Origin: Dehalococcoidia bacterium
GTDB lineage: Bacteria > Chloroflexota > Dehalococcoidia > Bin125
Length of the DNA: 64,000 nucleotides
Assembly (NCBI GenBank): GCA_965220315.1
Contig: CBDCPP010000002.1
Span: 579,088-643,087, forward strand
Direction of reading: 5' to 3'
Numbering within the stretch: position 1 is the stretch's first letter; the number at the start of each line of letters is the position of its first letter. This document shows, piece by piece, positions 35,094-54,200 of the stretch. Made by a program: the position numbers and the translations under genes. The notes under the pieces are model-generated. The model did not search any database and was not told where the DNA came from. It worked only from the letters and a program-made list of their open reading frames with translations.

Positions 35094-35167
35094 CCCTATC
35101 GGCTCCCTATCCCATCCCTATCCAAATCCCAACCCCCCCCCCAGGGTTATATGTCCCACTCCCTATC
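35094..35167. promoter_or_regulatory. iteron-like array: four CCCTATC repeats (three at exact 11-bp spacing, the fourth about four helical turns away) flanking a C10 tract (35133-35142)
   Basis: CCCTATC occurs at 35094, 35105, 35116 and 35161. The 11-bp phasing places the sites on one DNA face. A TGTGTACACA palindrome lies at 35288-35297 and AT-rich sequence lies downstream. Confidence 0.45.
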
Positions 35168-36214
35168 CCATGCCCTGGTCGCAGACGCAGAGAGGGCCTG
35201 CGGCGACGACTCCAAACGTACGGTCAATGCGGAAGAGCCCGGCCCATGGTCCATGGTGGGCCATCGGATCTCTTAAGACCCTACAGTGTGTACACATTGA
35301 GTACTTAATAAGGAAAGGATGGGCCGGGATGGACCATGGGCCACCGAGACACTCCCGGTTCCGGCCGCGGCCACACGCCGCATCGATCGCGGCGGTCGCC
35401 GCGCCGGGAGAAGGGATGCGCCGCCGCGCGTTCGTCGGGAAGGCCCGCTAGCGACCCGGGCGATCCCGCCGCCCACGCCGCCGCGCAGGGAGCAGTGGCC
35501 GCGCTGCGCGCGACTGTCTCTTTCGCCCCCGTTCCCGCCGAGCACGCCGCTCGCTGAACCGCCACGGCGCTGACCTAAGCACGGCCGGGGAGCGCCGCAA
35601 CACCTGGAACGGGGGCAGGCGCGGCCTGGGGCGTGAGGCCCTCCATCCGCGGCCGCGATCGCCGCGCGCCACGCGATCCGCCCGCGCCGGCCGCCGCGCC
35701 TGCCCCCTGTCGGTTCAGCGTGGCAGGCCCAGCGCCGCATCAAGGGGCGAGCAGGCAGCCCGCTCAAAAATCGGCGCGAAGAACGCACGGTAGGCCTGCC
35801 CCCTGGACGCGGCGCATCTGGGAGGCGGCGGCGGTGGCCATGCCTCCTGCTATGGGTTTGCGCTCCATGTGCACCCTGCGCAGCCCGCTCCGCGACAACC
35901 CATCTCCGAACGCGACAGCCCCTCGCCCAGCGCAGGCGCAAGCATGTTCGGCTGCGCTGGAGGACCAGCGCTGCCGATGCTCGCCTGCACGTCCTGGTCA
36001 AGGGTGCGGCTACGCCCACGCCGGAGGACCGGCGCGCCCTTGACCAGGACGGGACGGAAACCTGCCTGCCTGGTTGCCCGATCGTATACCCCGGCCTCAA
36101 GAGTGAAGGCTACGCCCAGGCCGGAGGACCGGCCTGCTCTTGACCCCGGAGTCATGGGGACAAGCGACCAGGCCGGCGACGGGAGCCGGAGGGATAAGGG
36201 AAAGGGACCCAACC

Positions 36215-37351: not shown

Positions 37352-37598
37352 CCGTGCGCACCTGCGACCACTGCCAGGCAGTGATGCGGGGCGCGCGCCG
37401 CCGCTACGGCTGCGACTACTGCCGCGCTCAGCTCTGCAGTAAATGCTACGACGCCCACCGCTTCACCCCCAGCCATCGCCCGCGTCCCTGTCCGCAGGCG
37501 GCGCGGGCCCAGCCCGCGTAGCCCCTTCCATCCACCCAGCACGCACAGAACAGCCCCGGCGCCGGCCGGGGCTGTTGCGTTAAGCGAAGGACACTCCC

Positions 37599-40500
37599 AT
37601 GACCACGATCACACGACTCGACACCCCCTGGGGACCCGCGCAGACCATCACCGAGCTCGCGCCCGGTGTCCGCATCGTCACCACCGCCAGCCACGGCGGC
37701 CTCCAGATCGAGGAGCCGCAATGGCTGGAGCTGCCCGCCGCCGTGCGGCGCACGTTCACCCGGCTGCACCCCAAGGGCTGGGCCGAGGAGGACTGCGAGA
37801 TGGCGATCGCCCTGGTCCTGCTGGGCCTGGCCGAGCACCCCTACTTCGGCGGCCCCGACTCCAAGGTCCGCCGCGCGGCGATCGGCATCGCCAACTTCTT
37901 CGAGACCTACCACCCCTGCCGGGAGCCCCTCGCGGCCTTCAAGCCCATCGCCGGGGGCAGCGGCGCCGAGGCGTGCGCGCACCGGCACGTGCTCTCCCTC
38001 CGGTGTCCCGACTGCGGGCAGACCATGCACCGCACGATCGCCGAGGTCGTCCGCTGCCACCCCTGCCGGCAAGCCGATGGTCTCGGCCACGCCCGCGTGA
38101 CGCAGGTCGAGCGCACCGAGGAAGCCTGGGACGAGCAGCTCCGCCAGCAAGCCAGCGCGCCCGTCCTGGCGGTCGCCCGCGAGCACTACGCCTCCCCCGC
38201 CCAGACGCCCTATCACTGCGAGGAGCTGGCCGCGCGGGAGCAGGAGCTCTACCACTGCACGACCCGCGAGCTCGAGCAGATCTGCCTCGACCTGGACATC
38301 CCGATCCGGACGCCCGAGGGCTGGAGCATCCCCACCGAGCCCGCCTACGTCGCCCACAACGAACAGCGCATCCACCTCGCCCAGGCGAGGGAGCGCGCCT
38401 ACCTCGAGTACTACAAGACCACCGTCGGCGGCCCGCCGATCGCCGGAGGGAGCGGAGAGATCGACACCATGCGTATCACATTCACCCCCAGTTGCAGCTG
38501 CGGCGCGACATCGCCCGGCTTCGACCGCCAAGACGAGGCCCGGCTGTGGGCCCTCCACCACATCGAGGAGCGGCACCTGAACGACCCCGAGCCCGAGCCC
38601 TTGCACGAATACCAGATCCACGTCCGCGAGACCGTGATCATGGACCGCTGCTACGGAGTCCGCGCCGCCAACGAAGAGCAGGCCAAGGACAACAACCAAG
38701 CCGACTGGGAGTGGCTCAACGAATCCGAAGTCGACACCACCGCCACCCAAGTCACCGAAGTGCGGCACCTGAGCGGAGCCGGCTGCGCAGGGTGCACCGC
38801 CGAGCAGAAGCCCATAGCGGGAGGCAGCGGCGAAGAGCAACCGATAGTCCCATGCGTCGCCCCCACCGACAGCGACGACGAGACCGAGCTACTCCACGAG
38901 TTCACGGTCGACGCCAACGACACCATCATCAGCGACCGCGTCTACAGCGTCTTCGCCCACAGCGAGGACGACATTCGGCAAGAGCTCGGCGAGTGGGATT
39001 GCTCGAGCCAAGGCGACGAGACGCTCCTCTCCCGCGAGCTGACCAGCATCGACCATTACCCCCCAGGCTGCCGCGCCTGCCAGGAAGCGCAGATGCTGCA
39101 GCCCATCGGGGGCGGCGCCGTCCGCAACCCCAAGCTCAAGTGGACCGCGCGCGGCCGCGGCGGCAGCCGGGAGTTCCGCGCCCTGCCCTACGTCATCTTC
39201 CACCCCTATGACGAGTCCCGCATGGGCGCCGGCGGCGGGGGCGGCATCCCCGTCTCCGACCAGTGGCGGCTCCACGTCGAGGGCGAGCCCGTTCGCTACT
39301 CGCGCAAGGATGGCTGGAGCGGGAAGAGTGAGACCCTCGGCACCTTCACCATGCTAGCCGCGGCCAAGGCCCGGGCCCAGGCCCACGCCGACGCCCGCTC
39401 CATCGAGCACCAGCAGCTCAACGAACAGCTCGGCCTCAAGCCCATCGCGGGAGGGAGCAGCGAAGGGGACTCCCCCTTCGTCCAGTGCTGGCCCATCGCC
39501 GAGTACTTCGCTGCCCTCCCCGAGGAGGCATTGCGGCAGCAGATAGGAACCTACAGCCCCGGCAAGAACTTCAAGCCGTGCTGCGTCGGCGCCCACCTGG
39601 CGTTCTTCCTCGGGACGGAGCTCCTCACGCGCAATCTGCTCGCCCCCTACCACGACTTCCTCGATGGCGAGAAGGCCCTTGCTGAGCAGCTCAACCTCGA
39701 CCCGCACACCGTCAGCACCCTGCTCTACGCAGCCGGAGCCGACACCAACCCCTTCGGCTATCGCCAGTGGCCCGTGCCGCCGGCGCAGGTGTTCACCAAC
39801 CTCCTGACGATCGAGAAGATCCCGCGATCACACGAAGCGGGACCCATGCACTCCGCCGCCATCGATGCGTACAAGCAGAGCCAAGCGCTCAAACCGATCG
39901 CGGGCGGGAGTGGGGAAGAGGAACCCATCCCCGGCTGCGAATGGTGCGATCCCGATCCGGATCCGGATAGCCCGAATCCACCCGACGCCATCGCCTCCGG
40001 CGCACAGCGCCTCGAAGAAGCAAAGAACGCCCTCTCGGACGTCTTCCACGTCATGGACGAGCACGCCCTCGACAACAAGCGCGAACCATGGCTGCACCAG
40101 CTATGGGACGCCCGTCAAACCATCGACTGCATCCAAGAGAACGCACCGGGCTGGGAGGAGCCGACCATCAAGCCCATCGCGGGAGGGAGCGGCGAGGAGG
40201 AACCCCCGCGGCTCACCACCCGCGAGCGCAAGGAGCGCCGCCTCAAGCGACGCCTGGACTGGGCCGAGAGCCGCGAGCACAAAGCCGAGCAGACCCGCAA
40301 GGCGGCCGATGCCGCCGTCGCCGGGATCCCATTCGGTCAACCCATCCTCGTGGGACACCACAGCGAGAAGCGCCACCGCCGCGCCATCGACCGGCACGAC
40401 CGCAACTTCTTGAAGACGGGCGAGCACTTGCACATGGCGGACCGCCACCGCCGCCGGGCGGCCGGGATTCAGGAGCAGCTGAACCGCTCCATCTACTCGG

Positions 40501-40847
40501 ACGACGACGACGCGATCCCCGCCTTGCAGCAGCGCATCGCCGAGCTCGAGGCCCGGCGCACGCGCATGAAGGCCATCAACCAGTGGCTGACCAAGCACGG
40601 CGGGATCCCCCGGCGGCGGGTGCCGCGCGGCTCGGAGCGGGCCCTGTTCGAGAAGGCCGGCGAGGCGATCAAGCGCTGCCACGCCGAGCTGACGCTGACC
40701 CAGAAGGAGGGCCAAGAGATCGTCCAAGCGCTCCAGTTCAACGGCGTGCTCGGCTACCCCAGCTACGCCCTCTCCAACCTATCCGCCAACATCCGCCGCC
40801 AAGTCAAGCGGCTCGAGCGGCTGCAGAAGGAGGCCCCCGATGCCTAG
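37599..40847 (+). CDS. 1082-aa multi-module protein: seven unrelated small modules (zinc ribbons, DUF3560-like C-terminal module, etc.) joined by a recurring KPIAGGSGEE linker
   Basis: A GAAGGA site precedes the ATG at 37599. Linker instances lie at 37941, 38434, 38808, 39108 (degenerate), 39438, 39891 and 40170. The last module (about 210 aa, ...GQPILVGHHSEKRHRRAIDRHDRNFLKTGEHLHMADRHRRRAAG...) resembles DUF3560. Confidence 0.65.
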   Translation: MTTITRLDTPWGPAQTITELAPGVRIVTTASHGGLQIEEPQWLELPAAVRRTFTRLHPKGWAEEDCEMAIALVLLGLAEHPYFGGPDSKVRRAAIGIANFFETYHPCREPLAAFKPIAGGSGAEACAHRHVLSLRCPDCGQTMHRTIAEVVRCHPCRQADGLGHARVTQVERTEEAWDEQLRQQASAPVLAVAREHYASPAQTPYHCEELAAREQELYHCTTRELEQICLDLDIPIRTPEGWSIPTEPAYVAHNEQRIHLAQARERAYLEYYKTTVGGPPIAGGSGEIDTMRITFTPSCSCGATSPGFDRQDEARLWALHHIEERHLNDPEPEPLHEYQIHVRETVIMDRCYGVRAANEEQAKDNNQADWEWLNESEVDTTATQVTEVRHLSGAGCAGCTAEQKPIAGGSGEEQPIVPCVAPTDSDDETELLHEFTVDANDTIISDRVYSVFAHSEDDIRQELGEWDCSSQGDETLLSRELTSIDHYPPGCRACQEAQMLQPIGGGAVRNPKLKWTARGRGGSREFRALPYVIFHPYDESRMGAGGGGGIPVSDQWRLHVEGEPVRYSRKDGWSGKSETLGTFTMLAAAKARAQAHADARSIEHQQLNEQLGLKPIAGGSSEGDSPFVQCWPIAEYFAALPEEALRQQIGTYSPGKNFKPCCVGAHLAFFLGTELLTRNLLAPYHDFLDGEKALAEQLNLDPHTVSTLLYAAGADTNPFGYRQWPVPPAQVFTNLLTIEKIPRSHEAGPMHSAAIDAYKQSQALKPIAGGSGEEEPIPGCEWCDPDPDPDSPNPPDAIASGAQRLEEAKNALSDVFHVMDEHALDNKREPWLHQLWDARQTIDCIQENAPGWEEPTIKPIAGGSGEEEPPRLTTRERKERRLKRRLDWAESREHKAEQTRKAADAAVAGIPFGQPILVGHHSEKRHRRAIDRHDRNFLKTGEHLHMADRHRRRAAGIQEQLNRSIYSDDDDAIPALQQRIAELEARRTRMKAINQWLTKHGGIPRRRVPRGSERALFEKAGEAIKRCHAELTLTQKEGQEIVQALQFNGVLGYPSYALSNLSANIRRQVKRLERLQKEAPDA

Positions 40848-41256
40848 CACGATCGATTGGGCCGAGCGCTCCCCCAGCGGCGGCCGCTTCGGCCGTCTCA
40901 AGGACGGGCTCTCGATTGCCTGCGCCCTGCCCGCTTGCGCAAGCCAGTGGGGGACGGGCGAGATCGACCCCGAAGGGAAGCACCAGAAGATCGCCCTGCT
41001 GTGGCAGCAGCCGGACGGCTCCATCGTCCACTCCCGCTGCGCGCCAGAGGAGGAGAAGAGTCGCTACGCATTTCAGTTGGACGACGCAACCCCCGGCAAG
41101 GAACCGGAGTTCTCCAACCGCACGGGCAAGCTATGGACGGGCCTGCAGCACGGCAGCAGCGGCCCCTGGCTCTTCCACGGCGCACGCTACTTCCAAGGCC
41201 AGGCCCGCTACGACCCGATCCTCTGGCGACGCGCCGACCAACAGCAGCTCCTGTAG
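40840..41256 (+). CDS. hypothetical protein (138 aa)
   Basis: MPSTIDWAERSPSGGRFGRLKDGLSIACALPACASQWGTGEIDPEGKHQ... has balanced composition. Its start overlaps the end of the modular gene. Confidence 0.4.
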   Translation: MPSTIDWAERSPSGGRFGRLKDGLSIACALPACASQWGTGEIDPEGKHQKIALLWQQPDGSIVHSRCAPEEEKSRYAFQLDDATPGKEPEFSNRTGKLWTGLQHGSSGPWLFHGARYFQGQARYDPILWRRADQQQLL

Positions 41257-41296: not shown

Positions 41297-41650
41297 ATGC
41301 AGCGACCTGCCACCCTCACCCCACACGCAAAGATGCTCCTGGCGCTGCATCGCAACAGCCCAGGAGCGTGGCATCAAGGAAGGACAATCCCGATGCCCAA
41401 TCAGCCTAGCATCCCCTACGAACCACGCACCTGCCCCGGCACGACCGAACACACCTGCGGGGAGATCCTCGCCGGCGAGAACCGCCGTCAGATCCGCTGC
41501 CTCCAATGCAGCCGCGACTACAACAACGAGCGCCGCCGCGCCAAGAACGCCGGTGTTCCCTTCGGGATCCCCAAGAACCAGCTCGAGCTCCCCATCCCCT
41601 GGCGTGGCCACGTCATCGACACCGACCCCGCCGAGCAAAGGACATTCTGA
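41297..41650 (+). CDS. hypothetical zinc-ribbon protein (117 aa)
   Basis: The ATG at 41297 gives MQRPATLTPHAKMLLALHRNSPGAW ... CPGTTEHTCGE ... CLQCSRDYNNERRRAKN. It is the 3' part of the long ORF-track frame 40088-41650, whose 5' part is an antisense artefact. Confidence 0.35.
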   Translation: MQRPATLTPHAKMLLALHRNSPGAWHQGRTIPMPNQPSIPYEPRTCPGTTEHTCGEILAGENRRQIRCLQCSRDYNNERRRAKNAGVPFGIPKNQLELPIPWRGHVIDTDPAEQRTF

Positions 41651-42178
41651 TGAACAACCGCAGCACCCACGCCACTACCAGGACCCGAGGACCGCCAAGC
41701 TCCCTCTCCCTCCCTCGATAAGAAACAAAGCCCAGCCCTACCCGCGCCCAGCCAACTTAAGACCGTGGGCCTCGCACCCCGGCCGCGATTCCCCGGGGAA
41801 ATCCCCCAGGGGCAGACGGTTTCGCGCGCGGAGGGCCCGCTCAGGGGGGCGGTTTCGGGCGATCGGGCCCCGATCACGCCGCCGGCGCCCGCCGCGGGCA
41901 TCCACAGCAGGGGCCTTGTGGGACACGCGATCGAGGGCGTGGGGGCCCGCCAGCCACCGCTGAGCGGCTCCTGGAGGGAAATTCGGGGGTTCGAGGCTGG
42001 AGGAGCGGCCGATATCCGCCTTTCCGACCGGCGGATGTGCGTGCGCCTCAGGCCCAGTGTCAAGTAGCTTTACACGTGATCCATGCCGCCGCGTGTGGCG
42101 AAATCGAACGGGCGCCCTGCGATCGAGGTTGCCAGCAGGAAAGCCTTCCGTACCATGTTTCCTGAAAACGGAGAGCCG

Positions 42179-45100
42179 ATGCCGGGTACCACTGCACAAG
42201 AAACCATCGCCGCGGCGCTCGACACCCTAGCCGAGAAAGGCCCGCACGCCACGGACGGCAAGTGGCTCGAAGACCTCACGGTGGCCGTCGCCCCGTACCT
42301 CAAAGAATGGGACGTCGCCTGCTGCTACGCCTGGTCCGACTGGCCCGAGCGGGAGACCCACTTTCCGGGCACCACGAACCAAGATCCCGGCATCGATGCC
42401 GTGGCGATCCGCCGCAGCGACGGCGCGCACATTGCCATCCAGTGCAAAGCCCGCCAGCTGGACGCGCACGGCCGGGGCGCTCCCATCGCCAAGGGGGAAA
42501 CGGCCGACTTCGCCAGCGCATCCGCCGGCTCGTTTTGGGCGGAGCGCTGGCTGGTCACCAACGGCGACAATCCCTTGAACGCAGGGGCTCGGCAGGTCCT
42601 CTCCATGGCGGACACGCCCATCAAGTGGATCAATCTCACCACTGATCTGGAACAGCAGCCCGCCGGCGGCCCCGCAGAGGAGTGCCCGCACTGTCAGCCG
42701 CACCCGGCCGGGGAGTCCCCACGCCAGACCAAATCCTGCATGCAGAACGAAGCCGTGACCCGCAGCGTCCGCCTGCTCAAGGAGCACGAGGACTCGGCGA
42801 GCGGCGGCTGCCCGGTCGGCCAAGCGCGGGGCAGGCTCATCCTGCCCTGCGGCACGGGCAAGACCCGCATCTCCCTGCGCATCATCGAGGCGCTCACGCC
42901 GCGCGGCGGCCTCTCCATCGTTCTCTGCCCCTCCATCGCCCTGGTCGCCCAGATCCGGCGCGAGTACCTGCAGCACACCACCAAGACCGTCCGCGCCCTC
43001 GCGGTCTGCTCCGACAAGACCGCCGGCTACGACCCCAGGAAGGAAGGCACCAGGAACACCGCCAAGGATCCCACCGTCGACAACAGCAACGTCAGCGCCG
43101 CCGAGGTCAAGGGCAAGGTCACCACGGACGCTGGCGAGATTGCCCGCTGGGTGCGCGAAGGCACGGACACCGAGGCGGTCAACGTCATCTTCGGCACCTA
43201 CCAGAGCGGCCTCAGGGTTTCGGAAGCGCTGTGCCAAACCGGAGCCACCGCCGCGGTGCTTGTCGCAGACGAAGCCCACAGGACGGCCGGCCTGCGCCGC
43301 AAAAGGAAGGCGAAGACTGGCCAGGCCTCGGAGGACGAGCAGCGGATCCGGGACTTCACCCTCTGCCACGACAACACGGCATTCCCGGCGACCTACCGGG
43401 TTTACCAGACTGCCACTCCCCGCATCTACACCGAGGCCGCTCCTCGCGGCGACAGCGACTGGCTGGTCCGCTCCATGGACGACGAGACCGTCTTCGGGGT
43501 GGATCTCTACCGCAAGAGCTACGTGGAAGCCGTGAGCAACGGTTGGCTGGCCGACTACCGCATCATCGCCTTGGGGGTCAACGACCCCGCCGCCTACGAG
43601 GCGGCCAACGCCCTGGCGCAGAAAACCGCCGGTGCCGGGAAACAGGCTCTGACAACGACCCACTTCCTGCGTGGTCTCGCCCTCGCCCTGGTCGTGGGCG
43701 GGGCCACCCAGGACGAGGAAAGCGGGGCGATCGCCATCAAGTCCTGCATCGCTTTCATGAACACCGTCGCTCGATCCGACAAAATGGCCGAGGCGCTGCA
43801 GAGCGCGCCAGTGCGCGACTGGCTCCGACAATGGCTCCACGACAACAGAAACGGCCAGCCGGCCGCCAGCTACACCCTGGAGCACCTAGACGCGACGAGC
43901 AACGTGAGCTCCCGGGAGAGCGCCAAGCTGCGGCTCGCCCAGGCCAGCGAAGAGAAGCCCCACGGCGTCATCAATGTGGGCATCTTCGGGGAGGGCACCG
44001 ACTCGCCTTCCCTCAGCGCCGTGGCTTTCCTCGAACCCAGAAAAAGCCCCATCGACGTGGTCCAGGCGGTGGGCCGGGCGATGCGCACCGCCCCCGGCAA
44101 GGAGTACGGCTACATCATCTGCCCCGTCCTCATCCCCCTGGCCGGCGACCCGGAGCAGTGGCTCAGCAGCAGCGGGCCGGATGACGGATGGCAGGAGCTC
44201 GGTCAGATCCTCCGCGCCCTGCGCGCCCACGACTCACGCATCGAGGAGGAGTTGGCGGAGCTGCTGCACCTATACGTTCCCACCCCGCCCAAAACACAAC
44301 GCACCCTCGTCGCCCTCGCCAGCGGAATGCAGAAGCGCATCCGGTACGTGGTGCACGACGGCGCGCCGGGCGAAGCGCAGGCCGCGGTGGAGCGGGTTCT
44401 GGACGGGGCAAGCACGATCGCAAAGGAGTTCCAACCCATCCGTGCACTCGCGGCGGCCGCCCCGGCGGCGCCCCAAGACAGTGCACCGTTGCAATATTCG
44501 CCGCCGGGTGAGCACGGTGGCCCGCTGGCGCCGGGGCACCAGATCGCGGAACGTCCCGAGCCCGTGCAGATCGTCACCGGGAAGCGGAACCAAGACGGGA
44601 GCGTCGAGCTGCGCCTGGCCGGCGTCAGCCGCGCCAAGCCCCGGGCGGACGGCAACCTGGGCCCTGTGGACATCGGCAAGACGAAGGCGAAAGCCAAAGC
44701 CATGATCAACAATGGCGCGGGCTCCCGCCTCCCCGCAGGGAAGCAAAAGGCGGCCCGCCGCACCCGGGAGGAGATCGCCGAGCAAACCGCCCTGCGGCTG
44801 CTCGATCTGAGCGGTCTGGGCGAGCACGGCAACGCGATCACGGTCAACCTGCTGTCGCGCTCCGGCCTCAGCGACAACCGGATCCTCCGGGATCTGAACC
44901 TCCTGGAAGCCGGCGTCAGCGAAGCGGCTCATCACCTCCGCAGTGACGGGCTCGCCACGGCGCTGGACGCGTACTTCGGGCTGGACAATCTCGAGCCGTC
45001 CGCCCGCACACAGCAGGCCGACGGCTGCACGATCGCGGCCCTGCTCATGATGAACGCCGCGATGCTGCACCAGCGCATCCACAGCGGCGGCTGGCTGTCG

Positions 45101-47440
45101 GGCATCAGCGACCTGGCGACCCTCAAGAACGACACCAACGTCGTCCAGCGCACGATCCGGGAATGGGGTCGCATCATGTGGCACGACTTCCGGCCCGTGT
45201 TGGAACCGGCGCTCAAGGCCATCTATGCCATGGAGGAGACCGGCAAGAAAGCCGGGCTGGAGCGGGCGCTGCACCATCTCGCGGCCGAAGCCGAGCGCAT
45301 CGCCGAGGTCTACGCCGACATGGGGGCGGATCACGCCGGCCCCCTCTTCAACAAGGTCATGGGCAACCAGGCCAGCGACGGCGCCTACTTCACCCGGCCC
45401 GTGGCCGCCTCGATCGCCGCCCGTCTCGCCCTGGACGCCTGTGGCGAGGCGGATTGGTCCGCCGCCCGAACCTGGCAGGACCACAAGATCGTGGACCTCG
45501 CCTGCGGCAGCGGCACCCTGCTCGCTGCCATGCTCACCGACATGAAACGGCGCGCCAGAGAGCGCGGGGCCAGCAAGAACCAGCTCGCCGATCTGCAGAA
45601 GCTGGCCGTCGAGGACACGATCACGGGGCTGGATATCAACCCGATCTCGCTCCAGCTGGCGGCAGCGCAGCTGACCGCAGGGAACCAAGAGATCCGCTAC
45701 CGCCGGATGGGGTTGCACTGCATGCCCTACGGCCCACGCCGGGATGATTCAACCCGGGCTTCCACCGGCACGCTGGAACTGTTGGAGCAGAAGGCCATCA
45801 TCCCGAGAGCGCATGAATTGGACCTCGCCGGCGACAGCGAAATCGCGGCGCGGGCCACCTGGGATCCCGCTGACGACGCCGAATTAGAGGATGCCGTTGC
45901 CGCCGCCATGGATGCCCGCATCGTCATCATGAACCCCCCCTTCACCAACCGGGCCAAGATGGGCGCGAAGTTTCCCAAGGCAACGCAGGACCAGATCCGC
46001 TCCCGGACCGACGCCCTCGAGGGACTGCTCGTGGGCGCGGACCCGAGCCTGACGGGATTCGCGGATAAAAACTCGCTCAGGCCGCTCTTTGTGGCCCTGG
46101 CGGATCGTGTGCAAACGCGGCCCGATGGGGTGGTGGCGATGATCAACCCGACCATCGCGCTGTCAGCCACGTCGGGGCTAGAGGAACGGCAGATCCTGGC
46201 CCAGCGGTTCCACATCCACACAGTGCTGACCTGCCACCAGCCCGGCAACATCAACATGAGCCAGAACACCAGCATCAACGAGAGCATCGTGGTGATGCGC
46301 CGCCACGAGGCCGGCCCCAAGCCTCCCACGCGCTTCGTCCACCTGGACAGGTTCCCAGCTGACGAGAGCCAGGTGGAGGATCTATACCGCCACCTTCAGT
46401 CATGTCCTCAAGGGCAGATGTCGAACGGCTGGGGAGAGGTCTCTGAGTGGCCCGCCGACCGTATGGAGGAGGGCGACTGGTCGCCGGCCATCTGGAGGTC
46501 GCCGGAACTGGCTGAAACGGCGCGGAAGTATGCAAATAGCCCGTACTTAACCGAAATAGGAATCCCGGACCGCACAGCTCACGCTTCAAGCCAAAGGCTA
46601 TACGAGAACTTCGAAAAATCACCAATGGATCACCCAGGAATGATACCCGTGATTGGGTCGAAAGGGGCCGGAGGGCAGAAAACCATCAGGGCTACACCAG
46701 ATGAGAACTGGATCCCGAGACAAGGACGAGAATCTCAAGCAGAGCACTATGGTAAATGGCACTCACACCTCCTCGTCACCGCCGGACAAGCAACAAACAC
46801 AGCACGCTTGACCGCAGTCGCCAGCGAAACCAAATACATTGGAGGAGGATGGTTCCCTGTTACAGGAACACAATTGGACGAATCGAAAGCCATTGCTGTC
46901 TTCCTGAACTCTACCGCCGGGCGACTGCAATTCATGCGAAGTCCCGGAAGAAAACTAGAATTCCCGAAGTACCAACCGGATGTGATCAACACCCTCCGCA
47001 TCCCCGAGGTCAGAGACGCCCGTATCCGCAAAATCCTCGCCGACTGCTGGGAGCGCACCAAGGAGATGGAAGTGCCGCAGTTTCGCGACGGGGAGTGCGA
47101 GGTTCGCGTCCTCTGGGACAATGCCGTCGCCGAGGCCATGAATTGGAACGTCGAAGACCTGGCCCACTCCCGCCAGATGCTTCACAACGAGCCGCACGTC
47201 CGCGGGCTCGGCTACAACGAGTATGGCGACGCGCTTGAGGACGGCGATGATACCGATCCACTCCCCGGCGTCGCGGTTGAAGTAGCGATCGCGCCAAAGC
47301 ACGATCTGGAACAGGCCTACTTCTGGACCCCCGAGTGGCAAGAGGCCGAAGCGAAAGCCGATCGGGACTTCGCCAACGAGGACTACTACGAAACGGGCGA
47401 CGTCGAGGACCTCATTCGCTGGCTGAACGATGGAGAATAA
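42179..47440 (+). CDS. single-polypeptide Type ISP-like restriction-modification enzyme: Mrr-family nuclease + SF2 helicase-like ATPase + gamma-class N6-adenine methyltransferase + C-terminal target recognition domain
   Basis: The N-terminus has DPGIDAVAIRRSDGAHIAIQCK (Mrr catalytic-domain motif). Helicase motifs follow: I (LPCGTGKTRISL), II (VLVADEAHRTAG) and VI (QAVGRAMR). The methyltransferase has motif I (VDLACGSGTLL) and motif IV (IMNPPFTNR). About 500 aa remain at the C-terminus. The probable start is the ATG at 42179 with a GGAGAG ribosome-binding site (ORF-track start 42083). Confidence 0.75.
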   Translation: MPGTTAQETIAAALDTLAEKGPHATDGKWLEDLTVAVAPYLKEWDVACCYAWSDWPERETHFPGTTNQDPGIDAVAIRRSDGAHIAIQCKARQLDAHGRGAPIAKGETADFASASAGSFWAERWLVTNGDNPLNAGARQVLSMADTPIKWINLTTDLEQQPAGGPAEECPHCQPHPAGESPRQTKSCMQNEAVTRSVRLLKEHEDSASGGCPVGQARGRLILPCGTGKTRISLRIIEALTPRGGLSIVLCPSIALVAQIRREYLQHTTKTVRALAVCSDKTAGYDPRKEGTRNTAKDPTVDNSNVSAAEVKGKVTTDAGEIARWVREGTDTEAVNVIFGTYQSGLRVSEALCQTGATAAVLVADEAHRTAGLRRKRKAKTGQASEDEQRIRDFTLCHDNTAFPATYRVYQTATPRIYTEAAPRGDSDWLVRSMDDETVFGVDLYRKSYVEAVSNGWLADYRIIALGVNDPAAYEAANALAQKTAGAGKQALTTTHFLRGLALALVVGGATQDEESGAIAIKSCIAFMNTVARSDKMAEALQSAPVRDWLRQWLHDNRNGQPAASYTLEHLDATSNVSSRESAKLRLAQASEEKPHGVINVGIFGEGTDSPSLSAVAFLEPRKSPIDVVQAVGRAMRTAPGKEYGYIICPVLIPLAGDPEQWLSSSGPDDGWQELGQILRALRAHDSRIEEELAELLHLYVPTPPKTQRTLVALASGMQKRIRYVVHDGAPGEAQAAVERVLDGASTIAKEFQPIRALAAAAPAAPQDSAPLQYSPPGEHGGPLAPGHQIAERPEPVQIVTGKRNQDGSVELRLAGVSRAKPRADGNLGPVDIGKTKAKAKAMINNGAGSRLPAGKQKAARRTREEIAEQTALRLLDLSGLGEHGNAITVNLLSRSGLSDNRILRDLNLLEAGVSEAAHHLRSDGLATALDAYFGLDNLEPSARTQQADGCTIAALLMMNAAMLHQRIHSGGWLSGISDLATLKNDTNVVQRTIREWGRIMWHDFRPVLEPALKAIYAMEETGKKAGLERALHHLAAEAERIAEVYADMGADHAGPLFNKVMGNQASDGAYFTRPVAASIAARLALDACGEADWSAARTWQDHKIVDLACGSGTLLAAMLTDMKRRARERGASKNQLADLQKLAVEDTITGLDINPISLQLAAAQLTAGNQEIRYRRMGLHCMPYGPRRDDSTRASTGTLELLEQKAIIPRAHELDLAGDSEIAARATWDPADDAELEDAVAAAMDARIVIMNPPFTNRAKMGAKFPKATQDQIRSRTDALEGLLVGADPSLTGFADKNSLRPLFVALADRVQTRPDGVVAMINPTIALSATSGLEERQILAQRFHIHTVLTCHQPGNINMSQNTSINESIVVMRRHEAGPKPPTRFVHLDRFPADESQVEDLYRHLQSCPQGQMSNGWGEVSEWPADRMEEGDWSPAIWRSPELAETARKYANSPYLTEIGIPDRTAHASSQRLYENFEKSPMDHPGMIPVIGSKGAGGQKTIRATPDENWIPRQGRESQAEHYGKWHSHLLVTAGQATNTARLTAVASETKYIGGGWFPVTGTQLDESKAIAVFLNSTAGRLQFMRSPGRKLEFPKYQPDVINTLRIPEVRDARIRKILADCWERTKEMEVPQFRDGECEVRVLWDNAVAEAMNWNVEDLAHSRQMLHNEPHVRGLGYNEYGDALEDGDDTDPLPGVAVEVAIAPKHDLEQAYFWTPEWQEAEAKADRDFANEDYYETGDVEDLIRWLNDGE

Positions 47441-47696
47441 GCTGCGGGCCTCGCGGCGCTTTCAACAGAGCTACCGTAAGAAGACCCCCGAACAGCAGCA
47501 GGCGATCGCGGCGGCGTTGACCCGCATGCAGACATCCATCGATCACGCCTCCCTCCGCGTCCGCAAGATCCAGGGGCACGACAATATCTGGGAGGCGCGT
47601 GCCGGCTTGTCGCTCCGCATCACCTTCACCCGCGACGACGGGGGCCTCTACCTGCGCACGAACTGCAGTCACGACCAGGTCTACCGCAGCCCCTAA
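47430..47696 (+). CDS. RelE/ParE (HigB-like) family toxin
   Basis: The 88-aa protein has a C-terminal ...RKIQGHDNIWEARAGLSLRITFTRDDGGLYLRTNCSHDQVY matching the RelE/ParE fold pattern (G.DN.WE.R...RI.F........L....H.EVY). Its start overlaps the RM gene stop by 11 nt. Confidence 0.5.
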   Translation: MENKLRASRRFQQSYRKKTPEQQQAIAAALTRMQTSIDHASLRVRKIQGHDNIWEARAGLSLRITFTRDDGGLYLRTNCSHDQVYRSP

Positions 47697-47749
47697 CGAG
47701 CCGACTCGGTGGCCTCCATCCCAGCCTGATTAATCGGAGACGGCATGCC

Positions 47750-48079
47750 ATGGACCTCAAAACACGGACCGTCCGTGAAAAGCTCATCTGGGTCGCCGAG
47801 CACAAGGAGACGATCGCGTACTCCGACGTGGCGCGCATCGCCGATCTGCCCGTGCGCGACCGCGGCCTGTTTCAGATCCTGGACGACATCAGCACCCACG
47901 AGCACAAGGCTGGCAGGCCGCTGCTAACGGCGGTCGTGGTCCGCAAGGGGGACGGCATGCCCGGCGCGGGCTTCTTCAAGTTGGCAACGCGGTTGGGGCA
48001 CCATCGCGCTGGCGCGTACAGAACGCGGTTCTGGGACAGAAAGCTATACTGGACACGGGACCGGGTCTACGCGCGGTAG
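47750..48079 (+). CDS. hypothetical protein, possible HTH partner of the RelE-like gene
   Basis: MDLKTRTVREKLIWVAEHKETIAYSDVARIADLPVRDRGLFQIL has a possible HTH (TIAYSDVARIADL). It lies 54 nt downstream of the toxin-like gene in a lower-GC islet. Confidence 0.35.
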   Translation: MDLKTRTVREKLIWVAEHKETIAYSDVARIADLPVRDRGLFQILDDISTHEHKAGRPLLTAVVVRKGDGMPGAGFFKLATRLGHHRAGAYRTRFWDRKLYWTRDRVYAR

Positions 48080-48424
48080 GCCAGCGTCTGACTTTGTTGA
48101 CATGAGGCGCCCATGTACCGTGCGGCCTGTGATCACGCCTAGTGTAAAGCTTCTTAACAGCGGCCCATGCCCTATAATCGAATAGTCGCGCGCGATTAAA
48201 GAGCATCCCCGCCGCGCAACTCGAGAAGAGGGCTTGGTGAGCGCCCCCAACCCTCCGCGACCGGCAGGGAACCCTGCCCCAAAAAAGGCGGGGCCGCAGG
48301 GCCCTACGCAGGATGATTGGGCTGAGCGTATTCAGATCGCCAAGACCGCTCGCGAGCAAGGCCGGAAGGCGCGCGAAGGAATACCACCTTCCCGCCCTGG
48401 CCCTCGGATTCCACTATCGAAGTC

Positions 48425-49276
48425 ATGACTGAGCCAGGGCACGATCGCAGCCCACTCTACGAAGCCCACAACGCGCAACGGTATGAGCGGCAGACGCTAA
48501 TTCGCGCTTACCAAGACGCCTACTCCTGCCGGCTCGTTGTGCTATTGGGGTTCTTGTTCCCCAATAGCGTGACTCTTTTTGAAGACACGCTCTATGACGC
48601 CACCCCGCAGGAGGACTTGCACATCATGTTGCAGACCCCTGGCGGAGATGGAGAAACGGCACTTCGGCTTCTGCGCCAGGCGCAATCGCGGTGCAAGAGG
48701 CTGACTGTCATGATTCCCGATCAGGCCAAGAGCGCCGGAACGCTCTTCGTTCTTGGCGCGGACGAGATCTATATGGGGCCAACGAGTGATCTTGGCCCAA
48801 TCGACCCGCAATTCCGAATGTCTGACAACTCCGTCGTGCCAGCCCGAGCGATCATTGCGGCAGTCAGAGATGCAGAGGAACGGGTCCAGAAAAGCCCCGA
48901 TACGTATGCGCTTCACGCATCGCTGTTGAGCAACATCACATCCATGCAGGTACAGCAGGCAAAAGACGCGATCGCCCGCACTGGCGATCAGCTGAAAGAG
49001 GCCCTTGCCTGCGCCGGGGGAAGAGACGAAGGCCAACTTGAAAAGCTCGCAAGCGATCTGCAAGAGCCGCTAGTGGAATCTCCGCAGAGCCATGGAACCA
49101 CGATATCGGCCGCGGATGCCAAAAAGTTAGGCCTCCCCGTTCGGATAGCAGACCCACTGGAACCACAGTGGCAAGACGCTTGGCGGATGTGGGCGAAATA
49201 CGCGGCGGCCGGTGCTGGGTATGGCGGGATGTCGGTGTACGAGGGGCAAAAGGCCTCACACTTAATCCCTGCATAG
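48425..49276 (+). CDS. SDH-family (serine dehydrogenase proteinase, ClpP/crotonase fold) serine peptidase
   Basis: LHIMLQTPGGDGETALRLLRQAQSRCKRLTVMIPDQAKSAGTLFVLGADEIYMGPTSDLGPIDPQ matches the ClpP-like fold with its nucleophile Ser in the AKSAG context. Confidence 0.55.
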   Translation: MTEPGHDRSPLYEAHNAQRYERQTLIRAYQDAYSCRLVVLLGFLFPNSVTLFEDTLYDATPQEDLHIMLQTPGGDGETALRLLRQAQSRCKRLTVMIPDQAKSAGTLFVLGADEIYMGPTSDLGPIDPQFRMSDNSVVPARAIIAAVRDAEERVQKSPDTYALHASLLSNITSMQVQQAKDAIARTGDQLKEALACAGGRDEGQLEKLASDLQEPLVESPQSHGTTISAADAKKLGLPVRIADPLEPQWQDAWRMWAKYAAAGAGYGGMSVYEGQKASHLIPA

Positions 49277-49429
49277 GCATCGTGGAAGTCTGCGCAGCCC
49301 GCGACGACGAAGTCGCCACGCGTGCCGACCTGACGGCGCTGGAGCTACGGCTGACCCTCTGGATGGGCTTCGGCTTCGCGCTCACGCTGGGCATCCTCAT
49401 CCCCCTCGTCGCGCTGACGTGAAGCACCC

Positions 49430-50100
49430 GTGCCAGAGATCGCTCCGTCGTTTGCTGTGTGGTGTTTGAATGCGGAGCTGAAACGGCAGGGCCTCCCGAA
49501 GCGAACAGGATGGCCGTGGGCCCGACAATTGGCGGTTCCGTACACAAAGCTGCACGCCACGCTCCGCTCCCTCTTTCTCGAGGCCATCGTTCTTGGGGCT
49601 CGTGATCCTGCTTTGGGAGTGAGCCTGATCTGTGAAGAGTGGGAAGCAATCATCGACAGTCCGATGCGTGTGACAGATCCCGATAAAAGCATCGCGGTGC
49701 TGGAGGAGATGTTCTCTGAGATGGTCCTTAACGATCTCACTGCGTGGTCGACAAGTTATGCAATCGCCAAAGTGTTGCGTGAAGCGGTAGATCGGCCCCT
49801 CGCAGCAAACGACTCCCCCTCCCTCCGCTGTACCAGTTGTTCCACCAGCATGGAGAAAGGATTCCCTGGCGCGAAGTTGAGACCACATTGGTGCGGAATT
49901 GGGTGAGCGCGCAGTTCGCGGCCGCCCTCTGGCATGGGATGAAACGATCAGACGATCACGAGATCACTTCGATGGCGGCGCCGATTCTCGGCCGAGAAGT
50001 TAGGCTCTTCGACGCAGTTCATCCAACGAAGCACGCCCCAGACGACCAGCTTGTCGCAGCGATACAGCAGCGTGGAATCAGCATGGAGAAGTTTTGGTAG
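49430..50100 (+). CDS. hypothetical protein, apparently split by a +1 frameshift near 49840-49906
   Basis: Two overlapping ORFs (49430-49906 and 49837-50100, the latter with a TTG start) have protein-like composition. The overlap falls in a CCCCCTCCCTCC run. Confidence 0.3.
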
Positions 50101-50412
50101 GTCCACGTCTCGGTCCGCACGATACAGATGCGCAGTACCTCAATGGATAGACGCAACGCTAACTGCCTCCCGTGTACCCGCTCCTCTTTTCCCACGGCGC
50201 GATCATGTCCGCTAAGGGCCGCTATCGGTCAAGCAGGGCGTTGCCGGGACGGCCCCGAGGGACAGCCCCGATTGACAGCACGGATGGACAGCAAAGACAC
50301 TAGACGCACGTGGAGCCGGTCGGGTTGTCAGCCCGCAAGCGCTCGGCAAGGTAGCGGCCTATCCGAGCGCGCCCGGCCCCGCGGCATCGTACCGCACGCC
50401 CCCGCTGTGCCC

Positions 50413-51077
50413 CTATCGGGTCGGGTCGGCACTCAGTTCAATAGCACAGGTTAGGCTCGTCTCGATCATCCAGCGCTCGCCTTGGGCGGGCGACGGAGCC
50501 CCGTCGGAGAACGCGGCGACGAAGTCCGCGAAGGGCACGTGGCGTTCGAACCAGAAAAGCACGCAGACGCAGGCCTCCGGCGTGGCATCCTCGCGACACC
50601 CCGTCAGGAAGGGCTCGACGATGAACGCAGGATACGGCGCGGCCACGAACTCCAGATCCGGCTCGGCGTTCAGCTCGGCAGCACAATGCACCGTGGCCTC
50701 GGCGGCCCAATCCAAACCCCGGTCGCTGGAAATCAGATCGGGCAACGCGTCATCCAAGTCTGCGGCGGGAACGTTCTGCGCGAACCAGTCAAAGGCACAG
50801 GCGCAGAACGCAGCCGGGCTGGCGCGTCGCTGGCCAGGCCACGATGATCGGACAACTGTTCCTCCCATTCGTCCACGGTCGGGAGATCATCGAGGGTCGC
50901 GGTCACCGGCTCGCGCGGCCGCGGTGCGGGCTTGGGCGGGGCGCCGGTGTCGACGACTCGGACGCGGTCACGGTCGTGCGGGCGAAGTCTTGGCCGCCGT
51001 CGTCCGAGCGGGCCGACACGATGTAGAACACGGCCACACCAATGATGATGCCAGCCCACACCCACAGCGCGCGCATT
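50413..51077 (-). pseudogene. membrane-anchored protein with an internally duplicated Cys-rich domain, broken across three frames
   Basis: The ATG at 51077 encodes a TM helix (MRALWVWAGIIIGVAVFYIVSAR). A Pro-rich linker (APPKPAPRPREP) follows in a second frame. A tandem domain (AFCACAFDWFAQNVPAADLDD... / EACVCVLFWFERHVPFADFVAAF...) follows in a third. Both frame switches fall in GC homopolymer-rich runs. Confidence 0.3.
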
Positions 51078-51282
51078 ACTTTTCGGTCGTCCGTCTCTCC
51101 GAATGACGTTCCGTGACCGATGTCCTCCTAGAAGACGTCAGGATCAGATCATTTGATTGCAATGGGGGGAACTCCAGGGAAATACCCACCGTGGGTTCGC
51201 GCCGGGATCTGCCTCGGCACGACCTCCGATCGTGGGTCCCGGTCGGCGCCCGCAGTGAGTCGTCGGTTGGTGGCAAGCTCCC

Positions 51283-54200
51283 TTAGCCGCCGACCGTCTG
51301 GGCACGCGGCGCCACCACCCAGAGCACGTCCCCGGGTGCGATGGCGAAGCCCCCGCGCCCCAGGGCGGGGAGGTAGGCACGGTCCCAGGCCCGGGTGGCG
51401 CGGGTGTACTGCCAGACGACCGTCACGTCCGTCCCGTCGAACAGATCGGCCGCCCGCGTGGCCGCCCCCGGCGGCACGACCACCAGGTCGCCGCCCGCCC
51501 GCAGATCCAGGGTGATGGGGTCGGCGACGGGCGCAGTTGGGGGCGGTGTCCCCGCCACGGGCAGCGTCTGGGCCACCGATGCCACGACCCAGAGCACGTC
51601 GCCGCCCGCGATGGGAAAGCCGCCGCGGCCCAAGGCGGGCAGGTAGGAGCGGTCCCAAGCCCGCGTGGCTCGGTTGTACTGCCAGGCGATCGTCACGTCC
51701 GTCCCGTCGAACAGATCGGCCGCCGTGGTGGCCGCCCCCACCGGCACGGGGACGAGGTCGCCGCCCGCGCGCAGATCGAGGGTGAGGCCGGGCGGCGCTG
51801 CGGCGACCGCCCCGTCGCCGAGCCGCACCCGGTAGGTCTTCGTGCGCTGGCCGTCGGCCGCGGTCACGGTGACGGTGATCGCGGCGAGCCCGGCCAGGGT
51901 GATCTGGTGGCCGTTCGTCTCGTCGCCGTCCGCGTCGGGCGGGGCGATCGCGATGGCCGTCCGGCGCTGCAGCGCCGCTGCCGTGACCGTAGTCTCCGCC
52001 ACGCCCTCGGCGATGACGCCCTCGTAGCCGGTCTGGCTCGGGTCGAACGCCCCGATGGCGATGCCGCTAAGGGTGAGCGCCGCCAGCCGGGCGTCGCCAG
52101 CGTCGGGCATGTTGTAGGTGTAGACGCGGTCGTCGCTGGCGTCCACCACGTACATCACGTCGCCGTCGGACCAGATGCCGCGGGGGCTGTTGTTGCTGGC
52201 GCTGCTGAGATGGGTGAAGTCCTCCTCGCGAACGCGCTCGAGTTCGTCGGCCTCGTCCTCTGCTCCCTGCTCGTCTGCCGGAACGGGCAGGCGGTAAGCA
52301 AAGAGGCGCCTGGGGCTGGCACCGGCGTCGGAGATCCAGACGGTCACCCGGTCCGACCAGATGCCCTGGGGGTCGCTGTTGCGGGCGGCGAGGGGGTAGG
52401 CGGCCAGTAGGGCGCCGCTCGCCAGGGCGTAGACGAAGACGCGGGTGGCACGATCGTCGAGCACCCAGATCAGGGTTGCGTCGGCCCAGAGGCCGCGGGG
52501 GTCGCCGTTGCGGGCGTCGAGCGCGATGTCGCGGTCCTCGAGCCGCTCGCCGGTGGCGAGGTCGTAGGCGAAGAGCTTGTCCTGGCCGCTGTCGGAAACC
52601 CAGATGGTCGTGCCGTCGGCCCAGATCCCGCGGGGGGCGCGGTTCTTCTCGTCGAGCGGGAACTCCCGCTCCTTGAGGCGGTCGCCGGTCTGCAGGGCGT
52701 AGGCGTAGACCCCGTCGCCGGCGCCGTCGGGGTTGTCGGCCACCCAGAGGGTCGTGCCGTCGGCCCAGGCGCCGGTGGGCGCGGCATTGCCGCCGTCGAG
52801 CGCGGCGAGGTCATGCTTCACGGTCCACTCGAAGTCGCGATCGCTGGGCGACGGGCCGTCGCCACCCCCGCCCCCGCCGCCGCCACCGCCACCCGTCGTC
52901 GGCGTCGCGGCAGTAGTGGGCGGGTAGGCGCGGAATATGGTCACGTGGTAATCCCGGGTGCTGTAGCCGTCCTTCGCCCTGACCTTCCAGTTGACGAAGT
53001 TACGGCCGGACTTCATCAGGGGTACTCGGATGCTGTGGGTGTGTGGGTCGACGTCCATGGTGTCCCCGAGCGTTTCGAATGTGGCGTCCGGGTCTTTCAG
53101 CGTGAAGGTGACGGTGACCTCCGTGACTGCATAGTCGACTTCCGCCTGGTAAGACGTGGCGCCCGGCTCCGTGAAGGCGGGGTCCAAGGTGCCGCTGCTC
53201 AGCGTCAGCGCGCTCAGCCCCGTTTCGCCCGGGAGCAGGCACGCGGTGTTGGCCCCGGTGAAGAAGCGCAGGCCGGCGTTGGTGAGCTTGGCGCGGAGGG
53301 CGGCCTCGGTCGGGTCCGTGGTGAAGGTGTTGCCCGAGATGTCGAGGAAGGTGAGGGACGTGGCGAACGGGTCGAACCGGGTCAGGTCCAGGGCGGTCAG
53401 GGCGTTGCAGGAGAGGTCGAGCTGAACCAGGCCGGTCAGCCCGTCGAAGATGTCCGCGGGCAGGGCCGTGATGTCGTTGTCGGTCAAGTAGAGAGAGGAA
53501 AAGCCGGCGCCCAGCGGGTCGAACAGGTCGGCCTCCAGCGTTGTGAGGTTGTTGTTCGACAGGAAGAGCCATGACAGGCCGTCCAGCCCCTCGAAGATGT
53601 CCTCGTGCAGGGACGTGAGGCCGTTGTCGTGCAGGGAGAGACCCGTCAGGCTGTCGAGCGGGTCGAAAATGTCCTCGTGCAGCGTCGTGAGGTCGTTGTT
53701 CCCCAGGATGAGCGTTTTCAGGCCGGTGAGTCCGTCGAAGATGTCCTCGTGCAGGGACGTGAGGCCGTTGTCGCTCAGTGGGAGATACGTCAGGCTGTCG
53801 TCCAACGGGTCGAACAGGTCGGTCTCCAGTGTGGTGAGGCTGTTCCGTTGCAGCCAGAGCTCCTTGAGGTTGACCAACCCGTCGAAGACGTCCTCCGGGA
53901 GCGTCGCGAGACTGTTGTCGTTCAGGGTGAGTCTCTCCAGGCCGGTGAGTCCGTCGAAGATGTCCGCGTCCAGGGTCGTGAGGCTGTTGCCGTACAGGTG
54001 GAGCTCCTTCAGGCTGTCGTCCAACGGGTCGAAGAGCCCGGCGGGCAGCGACGTGAGGCCGCTATCGAAGATCAAGAGCTCCTGGAGGTTGACCAACCCG
54101 TCGAAGACGCCGGCGGGGAGCGTCGTGAGGGTGCTGTTGCCGGTCAGCCCGAGCACAGTCAGGCCGGTAAGTCCGTCGAAGATGTCGGCGTCCAGGGTCG

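Follow-up and report, generated by a model that had tools for sequence, protein, structure and literature searches.

The locus

We focus here on a locus in a 64,000-nucleotide stretch of DNA from a Dehalococcoidia bacterium of the Chloroflexota (contig CBDCPP010000002.1, positions 579,088 to 643,087; the window, throughout), where the gene of a very large, Type ISP-like restriction-modification (RM) enzyme runs at its 3′ end into a small toxin gene. The enzyme is encoded by one plus-strand open reading frame (ORF), 42083–47440, whose TAA stop codon ends at 47440, and it combines in a single chain an Mrr-type nuclease, a superfamily 2 (SF2) helicase-like ATPase, a gamma-class N6-adenine methyltransferase and a C-terminal domain in the position of a target recognition domain. 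The ORF that follows shares 11 nucleotides with it (47430–47440), an overlap that a first-pass annotation of the window, made from the letters alone, had read correctly. The same annotation had seen no antitoxin upstream of the toxin; in fact, a toxin-binding motif is fused in frame to the enzyme as its last ~45 residues (E = 3.7e-15). Judged from their sequence, these residues appear to correspond to the C-terminal, toxin-binding part of small type II antitoxins (of the MazE/AbrB type and others related to them), to which they are homologous, and it is probably through this tail that the enzyme itself holds the toxin in check. Coordinates are collected in Table 1. Residue numbers count from the opening of the ORF at 42083, so that position 42179 corresponds to M33, which is most likely the true start since residues 1–30 align to none of 119 homologues, the identical database protein has 1753 residues and a promoter-like site lies at 42129–42156.

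An antitoxin-type tail at the end of the enzyme

The conserved core of the enzyme family ends at residue 1711 (...EPHVRGLGY) and is followed by a short acidic tail, as in 66 of the homologues described below, after which the frame enters the motif. A hidden Markov model (HMM) of this motif was built from the C-termini of 53 genome-derived partner antitoxins, none of them from the window, and its one match among the window's 1073 stop-to-stop ORFs is the C-terminus of the enzyme, at residues ~1740–1783. The enzyme ends in ...EQAYFWTPEWQEAEAKADRDFANEDYYETGDVEDLIRWLNDGE, the partner gene that precedes P0122, the closest homologue of the toxin, in ...IWTPEWQRWE...DAEDLIRWLNAGD, or more fully ...CIWTPEWQRWEMLADYNRMTGACYEPDDAEDLIRWLNAGD, and a second partner antitoxin in EQAYFWSEKWQEGERE... 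/ EQAYFWSEKWQEGEREVNEE.... The stretch from the end of the enzyme core to the motif lacks any ATG, GTG or TTG in frame. The in-frame junction is not an assembly slip of this record, since the window sequence recurs exactly, over 46264–47838 and 46881–47845, in two Logan assemblies made from other runs. A word-indexed search with the 60-residue tail found no protein that shared words with it. In the AlphaFold2 model, the tail is predicted with low confidence to form two short helices, at the FWTPEWQ and DLIRWL segments, which would be typical of antitoxin segments that fold upon binding.

The motif recurs at 148 other loci, of which 68 lie in species genomes, for the most part of Chloroflexota, and 80 in metagenomes; the window makes 149. 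The ORFs that carry it are all short, typically ~90–110 residues in the genome loci and with a median of 99 residues in the metagenome loci, and they share the C-terminal pattern QAYFWTEEWQxGExxAxxDIxxGR..F....e....L behind N-termini that match MazE_antitoxin (E = 2.5e-10), are AF2212-like or are unrecognised. A member of the toxin family lies directly downstream of the motif ORF at 119 of the 148 loci (53 from genomes, 66 from metagenomes), typically with abutting or overlapping genes; the toxin comes upstream of the motif antitoxin at 3 of the 68 genome loci. The usual form of these antitoxins is thus small, separately translated and equipped with a DNA-binding N-terminus, and the window tail departs from it in that the motif ends a 1753-residue enzyme. 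Three long stop-to-stop motif ORFs (L098, L100 and L107) were considered as further fusions and were put down, on inspection, to reading frames that extend spuriously upstream where the DNA is rich in GC.

The nearest relatives of the enzyme tail, at L003 and as an orphan at L009, are apparently peptides of ~56–58 residues that lack any N-terminal domain. The orphan (L009:3962–4129, in the Tepidiformaceae metagenome-assembled genome (MAG) OZ251525.1) is a ~58-residue ORF with 69% identity to the enzyme tail. Its neighbours are a birA-like gene on one side and rpsB on the other, no toxin gene is close by, and the ORF may represent either a remnant or a minimal antitoxin that stands by itself.

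The toxin gene

The ORF that overlaps the enzyme stop codon has itself no Pfam or NCBIfam match, and in a word-indexed homologue search it matched only itself. An exhaustive HMMER search, on the other hand, recovered 163 remote homologues of 85–100 residues, the alignment of which shows the pattern of the RelE superfamily; the near-invariant residues of this family (F11, L42, G49, R63, T65 and H81) are all present in the window toxin. Between 10 and 14 of 80 family members match each of ParE_like, ParE-like_toxin, ParE_toxin, YafQ_toxin and Gp49, the family profile matches RelE3 of M. jannaschii (3bpq, E = 1.1e-7), and the ORF matches the RelE-like toxin PHROG 1213 (E = 8e-4).

The AlphaFold2 model of the toxin (predicted local distance difference test, pLDDT, 91.4) has the RelE (BECR) fold, with an N-terminal helical hairpin on an antiparallel beta-sheet, and Foldseek aligns it to YafQ, archaeal RelE, YoeB, RelK and HigB at template modelling (TM) scores of 0.66–0.79. 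The best of these structural matches are ribosome-dependent mRNA endonucleases and not the gyrase-poisoning ParE. By manual alignment R63 and H81 fall beside R65 and H83 of YoeB, and they may be the catalytic Arg and His. On the predicted structure, then, the 88-residue ORF is a genuine RelE/YafQ/YoeB-fold toxin, and the RelE/ParE-like assignment of the first-pass annotation is borne out by profile, PHROG and structural comparison alike, with the conserved residues in place.

The enzyme and its relatives

Pfam domains follow one another in the enzyme in the order Mrr_cat_2 (residues 79–192), ResIII (220–447), Helicase_C (596–669) and N6_Mtase (1096–1195), and its catalytic motifs are all intact: GIDAVA...IQCK at residues 103–122, CGTGKT at 256, DEAH at 396, QAVGRAMR at 661, DLACGSG at 1138 and NPPF at 1284. 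In an alignment of 50 family members, DLACGSG and NPPF are invariant and every named motif of the nuclease, helicase and methyltransferase is invariant or at least 90% conserved, so that the motifs are not degenerate. Over residues 95–730 there is homology to LlaBIII and LlaGI, both of them Type ISP enzymes (PDB phmmer, E = 1.4e-50 to 4xqk, LlaBIII, and 7.8e-50 to 5ffj); the helicase motifs and the nuclease catalytic residues align with those of LlaBIII, GIDAVA...IQCK being set against GVDLVA...IQAK. The PADLOC model REase_MTase_IIG, for Type IIG/ISP enzymes, covers residues 81–722 (E = 4e-91).

The C-terminal 1050 residues yield only weak N6_Mtase-type matches. An AlphaFold2 model of residues 930–1785 has a mean pLDDT of 67.7; it reaches a pLDDT of 72–98 at residues ~1409–1709 and is helical, at mixed confidence, over residues ~930–1200. 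These may correspond to the all-alpha coupler that joins ATPase and methyltransferase in Type ISP enzymes, though they show no sequence match to it and a variable linker is inserted. With the whole model, Foldseek finds BpuSI (Type IIG), CamA, M.BseCI, M.TaqI and PglX of the bacteriophage exclusion (BREX) system at E = 1e-10 to 1e-6, and the matches to BpuSI, CamA, M.BseCI and M.TaqI take in the recognition domains of those enzymes. The core of the Type ISP recognition domain has the same fold as M.TaqI and BpuSI (PMC4872093), and the model suggests that residues ~1407–1715 form a TaqI/BpuSI-like target recognition domain. As modelled, the methyltransferase and recognition half is of a different lineage, kin to TaqI, BpuSI, CamA and PglX at the level of the fold only. 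The LlaGI/LlaBIII architecture proposed in the first-pass annotation therefore stands as regards domain order and motifs, whereas sequence homology is confined to residues 95–730 and the C-terminal half comes from elsewhere. In its architecture and its likely mechanism, the enzyme joins the Type ISP-like class as a new and divergent representative.

Homologues of the enzyme were taken as the best 120 of 3504 matches at E ≤ 1e-10, the window's own protein included, and all counts of homologues given here refer to this set. They are 62–70% identical over 93–98% of the length and come from diverse metagenomic contigs, the few that are named belonging to Chloroflexota; all four that were inspected in context are stand-alone genes, one of them beside CBASS and Druantia defence genes. 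Their C-termini differ: 66 have the short acidic tail, 44 an extension of ~90 residues and 2 other long tails, one of these two being the window's own protein, and 8 are unclassifiable. The ~90-residue extension (for example L007:13071–13397) is unrelated to the antitoxin tail, has no Pfam match and follows the pattern HPAYQ.II.MGEPAVP.LL.RL...HWF.AL..ITG..PV...RG...M...WL.WG, after which we call it the HWF extension. Modules seem to be added with particular frequency at the C-terminus of this enzyme family. At one locus (L008), a DUF7689 gene follows the HWF extension. A megablast search of 42083–48100 against plasmids gave no match.

A recombinant block in the putative recognition domain

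The first-pass annotation had pointed to an AT-richer segment inside the predicted recognition domain, at 46440–46960, and had taken it as a sign of horizontal exchange; calculation upholds both. Against a window mean GC of 0.651 (standard deviation 0.041 in 500-nucleotide windows), GC falls to 0.52–0.57 at 46400–47150, compared with ~0.67 in the remaining gene, and this stretch contains the lowest-GC 500 nucleotides of the whole window. Two-breakpoint maximum-likelihood segmentation of third codon positions places the block at 46499–46984. The contrast in GC at third codon positions (GC3) is highly significant (binomial p = 3e-26; log-likelihood ratio 48.9, compared with a maximum of 8.6 in 100 shuffles), GC3 dropping from ~0.85–0.9 to 0.46–0.52 while GC at first and second positions hardly moves. 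Amino-acid composition is ruled out as the source of the AT-richness, the drop being seated at third codon positions.

In the 120-sequence alignment, the block aligns gap-free to all homologues and is therefore not a non-homologous domain swap. Three homologues (P0003–P0005) are 85–89% identical to the window protein at residues 1476–1610 and only 68–69% over residues 40–1470, the others reaching at most 62% in the block; at the DNA level, identity to the genes of these three is 83–95% in 46433–47030 versus ~55–80% elsewhere. The same three genes share the local GC3 dip, while a homologue with a different block variant, from a high-GC host, has a mild dip only. Nowhere else does the family vary as much as in this block, where mean pairwise identity is 52% compared with 70–73%. 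Composition and phylogenetic incongruence together show that 46499–46984 came in by recombination, its source being a relative of lower GC, and the exchange may well have altered target specificity, in which case the block would be a specificity cassette.

The closest homologue in the AT-rich block (L007; contig ctg587023, 735547–756946) lies inside a defence island with a CD-NTase/Cap15 pair of the cyclic-oligonucleotide-based antiphage signalling system (CBASS) and with Druantia DruA and a large helicase, and it also adjoins TrwB-like and relaxase-like genes, a conjugative-element remnant.

A proposed mechanism and its alternatives

We consider it likely, if some way from certain, that the locus encodes a Type ISP-like RM enzyme whose fused antitoxin tail holds the cognate toxin latent, the whole acting as an addiction device. 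By analogy with LlaGI and LlaBIII, the methyltransferase and recognition domain would read and methylate an asymmetric site, and at unmodified sites the SF2 motor would translocate and the N-terminal Mrr nuclease would cut. No Shine-Dalgarno sequence precedes the toxin start at 47430 and no promoter-like site was found on the plus strand within the 3′ end of the enzyme gene; we thus infer translational coupling, in which the toxin would be made by ribosomes that terminate on the enzyme ORF. Since its translation would be coupled in this way, the toxin would remain at or below the level of the antitoxin. The tail would capture the toxin and keep it latent on the enzyme, until proteolysis of the tail or linker, or a stop of enzyme synthesis upon loss of the element or phage shut-off, released it. 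The freed toxin would then act as an mRNA interferase, cutting ribosome-bound mRNA and arresting growth. At the least, such a module would stabilise the enzyme gene and the island that carries it through addiction, and it may also provide a back-up by abortive infection. The first-pass annotation had offered functional coupling of toxin and RM enzyme as one of two options; the evidence favours it, probably in the more concrete form of a covalently fused antitoxin peptide.

A bolder version would see a guarded two-effector immune protein, in which phage attack on the enzyme, or its degradation, titration or shut-off, frees the toxin, so that failed restriction turns into abortive infection, with the variable C-terminus (antitoxin tail or HWF module) serving as a general docking site for secondary effectors. 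Such a protein would follow the logic of PrrC and EcoprrI (see below), arrived at anew with a covalent type II antitoxin. We regard this version as rather improbable.

Several points weigh against the addiction device, the foremost of which is that the antitoxin fusion is a singleton, absent from the other 119 enzyme homologues and from the 148 other motif loci. The fusion may have arisen recently and by chance, without being selected for any role, and free antitoxin could still come from cleavage of the finished protein or from a rare, non-canonical start inside the gene. A search of the PDB with the tail profile returned chance matches only, with no solved structure that contains the motif. 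Across 102 pairs, the similarity of the toxin to that of the window and the similarity of the tail to that of the window are uncorrelated (Spearman −0.10); co-inheritance therefore rests on individual examples (L003, L079), and co-evolution is not claimed. On the side of the enzyme, sequence similarity to LlaGI/LlaBIII does not extend into the methyltransferase and recognition half, the PDB phmmer and PADLOC matches ending at residues ~722–730, and the methyltransferase core is modelled poorly, with a pLDDT below 50 at model residues 250–349.

Because the fusion is a singleton, a neutral accident is a serious rival. A short antitoxin–toxin cassette would have inserted just behind the enzyme gene, where a small deletion then took away both the enzyme stop and the antitoxin start. 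The arrangement would have survived because the tail still neutralises the toxin, but it would have no link to restriction and would be an ordinary addiction cassette, fused by chance. Its occurrence only once among 149 motif loci and 120 homologues fits this course of events. So does the form of the nearest tail relatives, at L003 and L009, as a plain read-through fusion of a peptide of this size, free of any DNA-binding domain, would give the observed layout; so too does the enzyme's own short acidic tail, retained ahead of the motif. No direct counter-evidence exists. The accident differs from the proposed mechanism only in whether the coupling was selected, but the other, HWF extension on 44 of the 120 homologues hints that added C-terminal modules can be functional; on balance, we think the accident unlikely. 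If, instead, the antitoxin were made separately, from a non-canonical start (such as ATC or CTG at 47291–47308), from an ATG at 47177 or by proteolysis, then the enzyme and the toxin–antitoxin (TA) pair would be independent. The in-frame ATG at 47177 (M1699) would in fact give an 87-residue product, close in size to the free antitoxins, and the linker, being predicted to be disordered, would be accessible to proteases. M1699, however, lies inside a conserved segment of the family, there is no Shine-Dalgarno-like sequence before 47177 or before the rare codons, and the want of ordinary start codons between core and motif and of a plus-strand promoter-like site in the 3′ end of the gene, both noted above, count against separate synthesis, which we hold to be very improbable.

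Two further explanations set the tail aside altogether. The first-pass annotation's other option was a HigB-HigA-type reversed module with its partner at 47750, in which the 109-residue ORF at 47750–48079 would be the antitoxin and the tail irrelevant. This ORF does lie on the same strand, 53 nucleotides past the toxin, and the toxin does precede the antitoxin at the three reversed genome loci; however, at those three the antitoxin still bears the same C-terminal motif, and the 109-residue ORF is a singleton with no helix-turn-helix (HTH) or antitoxin family match at E up to 10 and no match in Pfam, NCBIfam, PHROG or the PDB, and none of the ORFs at the 68 genome-derived loci is homologous to it. 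The ORF is thus probably outside the module, and a reversed module is scarcely credible. The toxin ORF could also be a decaying or unexpressed remnant, beside a tail that is a meaningless leftover, as might be suspected from its lack of a direct Pfam match and from its forming one sequence-identical cluster only. Against this, the ORF is intact, aligns to the family profile from end to end with every near-invariant residue kept, yields a high-confidence fold model and has the tight junction to the motif that is typical of the toxin family; we give decay next to no credence.

Relation to known systems

The window enzyme shares with the Type ISP enzymes LlaGI and LlaBIII the single chain and the order of Mrr nuclease, SF2 ATPase, gamma N6-adenine methyltransferase and, putatively, C-terminal recognition domain. 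It differs from them in ~200 extra residues between motor and methyltransferase, the variable Pro/Ala linker included, in belonging to an unusually conserved family and in its antitoxin tail, which is found on none of the characterised Type ISP enzymes. The toxin, for its part, has the RelE/YafQ/YoeB fold known from type II modules of the RelE superfamily (RelBE, YefM-YoeB, DinJ-YafQ). More specifically, the arrangement matches the pairs of MazE/AbrB-type antitoxin and RelE/ParE-like toxin that are common in Chloroflexota MAGs, which have the same antitoxin-first order and overlapping or abutting genes. In those pairs, however, a DNA-binding or dimerisation domain (MazE_antitoxin or AF2212-like) stands where the window has a restriction enzyme of ~1700 residues; with the N-terminal DNA-binding domain so replaced, the usual antitoxin autoregulation is impossible here.

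The nearest functional parallel may be the PrrC anticodon nuclease, which the Type Ic enzyme EcoprrI keeps latent and which is freed when phage inhibits that enzyme (PMC1484252, PMC2610378). In both cases an RNA-cutting toxin would be silenced by physical association with an RM enzyme. PrrC, on the other hand, is an ABC-ATPase/anticodon nuclease with no homology to the window toxin and is bound non-covalently to a multi-subunit Type I enzyme, whereas here a covalent antitoxin peptide would hold a RelE-fold toxin. CapRel SJ46 is a toxin–antitoxin fusion in one chain (PMC9712102), and in the parts consulted a 2025 survey of mono- and multidomain RelE/ParE toxins describes fused toxin–antitoxin genes as well as a RelE homologue in a defence operon with a DUF262 Type IV-restriction-like protein (PMC11980606). 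Unlike the arrangement here, CapRel SJ46 and the cases seen in that survey are single-chain TA fusions or separate genes of an operon. The words methyltransferase and helicase occur nowhere in the survey, the consulted parts of which give no antitoxin peptide on an RM enzyme, and a full-text search of the literature surfaced no antitoxin peptide fused to an RM enzyme.

Restriction enzymes and TA modules are usually thought of as distinct defences that merely share islands; here, a single polypeptide would unite restriction enzyme and antitoxin. If the tail does neutralise the toxin, the locus would offer a natural case in which a large enzyme serves as antitoxin though no DNA-binding domain is present, and a simple test of whether a growth-arrest effector can guard a restriction enzyme. 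The ~45-residue motif, already found on MazE-like, AF2212-like and domain-less antitoxins, would then be a portable toxin-neutralising tag. The AT-rich block, in turn, marks out the position of a candidate specificity cassette in a Type ISP-like family that is large, very conserved and as yet uncharacterised. The arrangement is unusual and directly testable, yet it is a single occurrence.

Feature list and flanking genes

Table 1. Features of the enzyme–toxin locus, in window coordinates
Feature	Position	Strand	Remarks
Nuclease–helicase–methyltransferase single-chain enzyme gene, 1753 residues	42179–47440	+	Frame open from 42083; M33 likely start
Mrr-family nuclease domain, residues 79–192	42317–42658	+	Pfam Mrr_cat_2, E = 2e-9; GIDAVA...IQCK at 42389–42448, at least 90% conserved in family
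SF2 helicase-like ATPase, residues ~220–730	42740–44272	+	ResIII and Helicase_C; motif I 42848–42865, DEAH 43268–43279, motif VI 44063–44086
Indel-rich variable Pro/Ala linker, residues ~781–840	44423–44600	+	Identity 0.20–0.38, gap fraction 0.22–0.24 (120-sequence alignment)
Gamma-class N6-adenine methyltransferase core	45368–46300	+	Pfam N6_Mtase; DLACGSG (motif I) 45494–45514, NPPF (motif IV) 45932–45943
Beta-rich C-terminal domain in target recognition domain position, residues ~1407–1715	46301–47227	+	AlphaFold2 pLDDT 72–98; putative recognition role
AT-rich mosaic block, residues 1473–1634	46499–46984	+	GC3 0.512 inside, 0.861 outside
Acidic, predicted-disordered linker, from core end (...EPHVRGLGY) to motif	47228–47299	+	pLDDT 29–34; no in-frame ATG/GTG/TTG
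Antitoxin-type C-terminal tail, residues ~1740–1785 (EQAYFWTPEWQEAEAKADRDF...DVEDLIRWLNDGE)	47300–47437	+	HMM of partner antitoxins
RelE/YafQ/YoeB-fold toxin gene, 88 residues	47430–47696	+	Overlaps enzyme stop codon by 11 nucleotides (47430–47440)
ORF of 109 residues	47750–48079	+	53 nucleotides downstream of toxin; singleton cluster

Downstream of the toxin, at a distance of 0.7 kb, a ClpP-fold serine protease of the SDH type is encoded at 48425–49276 (Pfam SDH_protease, E = 4e-12; NCBIfam Clp_like_SDH, E = 2.6e-18; PHROG 11747, E = 4e-33), in a stretch of lower GC (0.57–0.60, ~48350–50300). The presence of a protease beside a fused antitoxin with an exposed linker is suggestive. Right of 51283, the genes are ordinary chromosomal ones, among them those of a 2952-residue LRR/PKD/cadherin surface protein and a clostripain-family peptidase. 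An Rfam scan of 41500–51500 gave no match.

The left flank (29650–41000), on the other hand, resembles a phage or mobile-element island, with a weakly terminase-large-subunit-like ORF on the minus strand (29650–31455, E = 2e-4), DUF6941 (33917–34471), DUF3846 (36140–37351) and a 1082-residue protein with DUF7007 and DUF3560 (37599–40847). Further to the left lies a tRNA-Ser(TGA) gene (27041–27130), the anticodon-arm region of which is copied exactly over 24 nucleotides at 28591–28614, 1.5 kb downstream, and this copy may be the attachment-site remnant of an integrated element.

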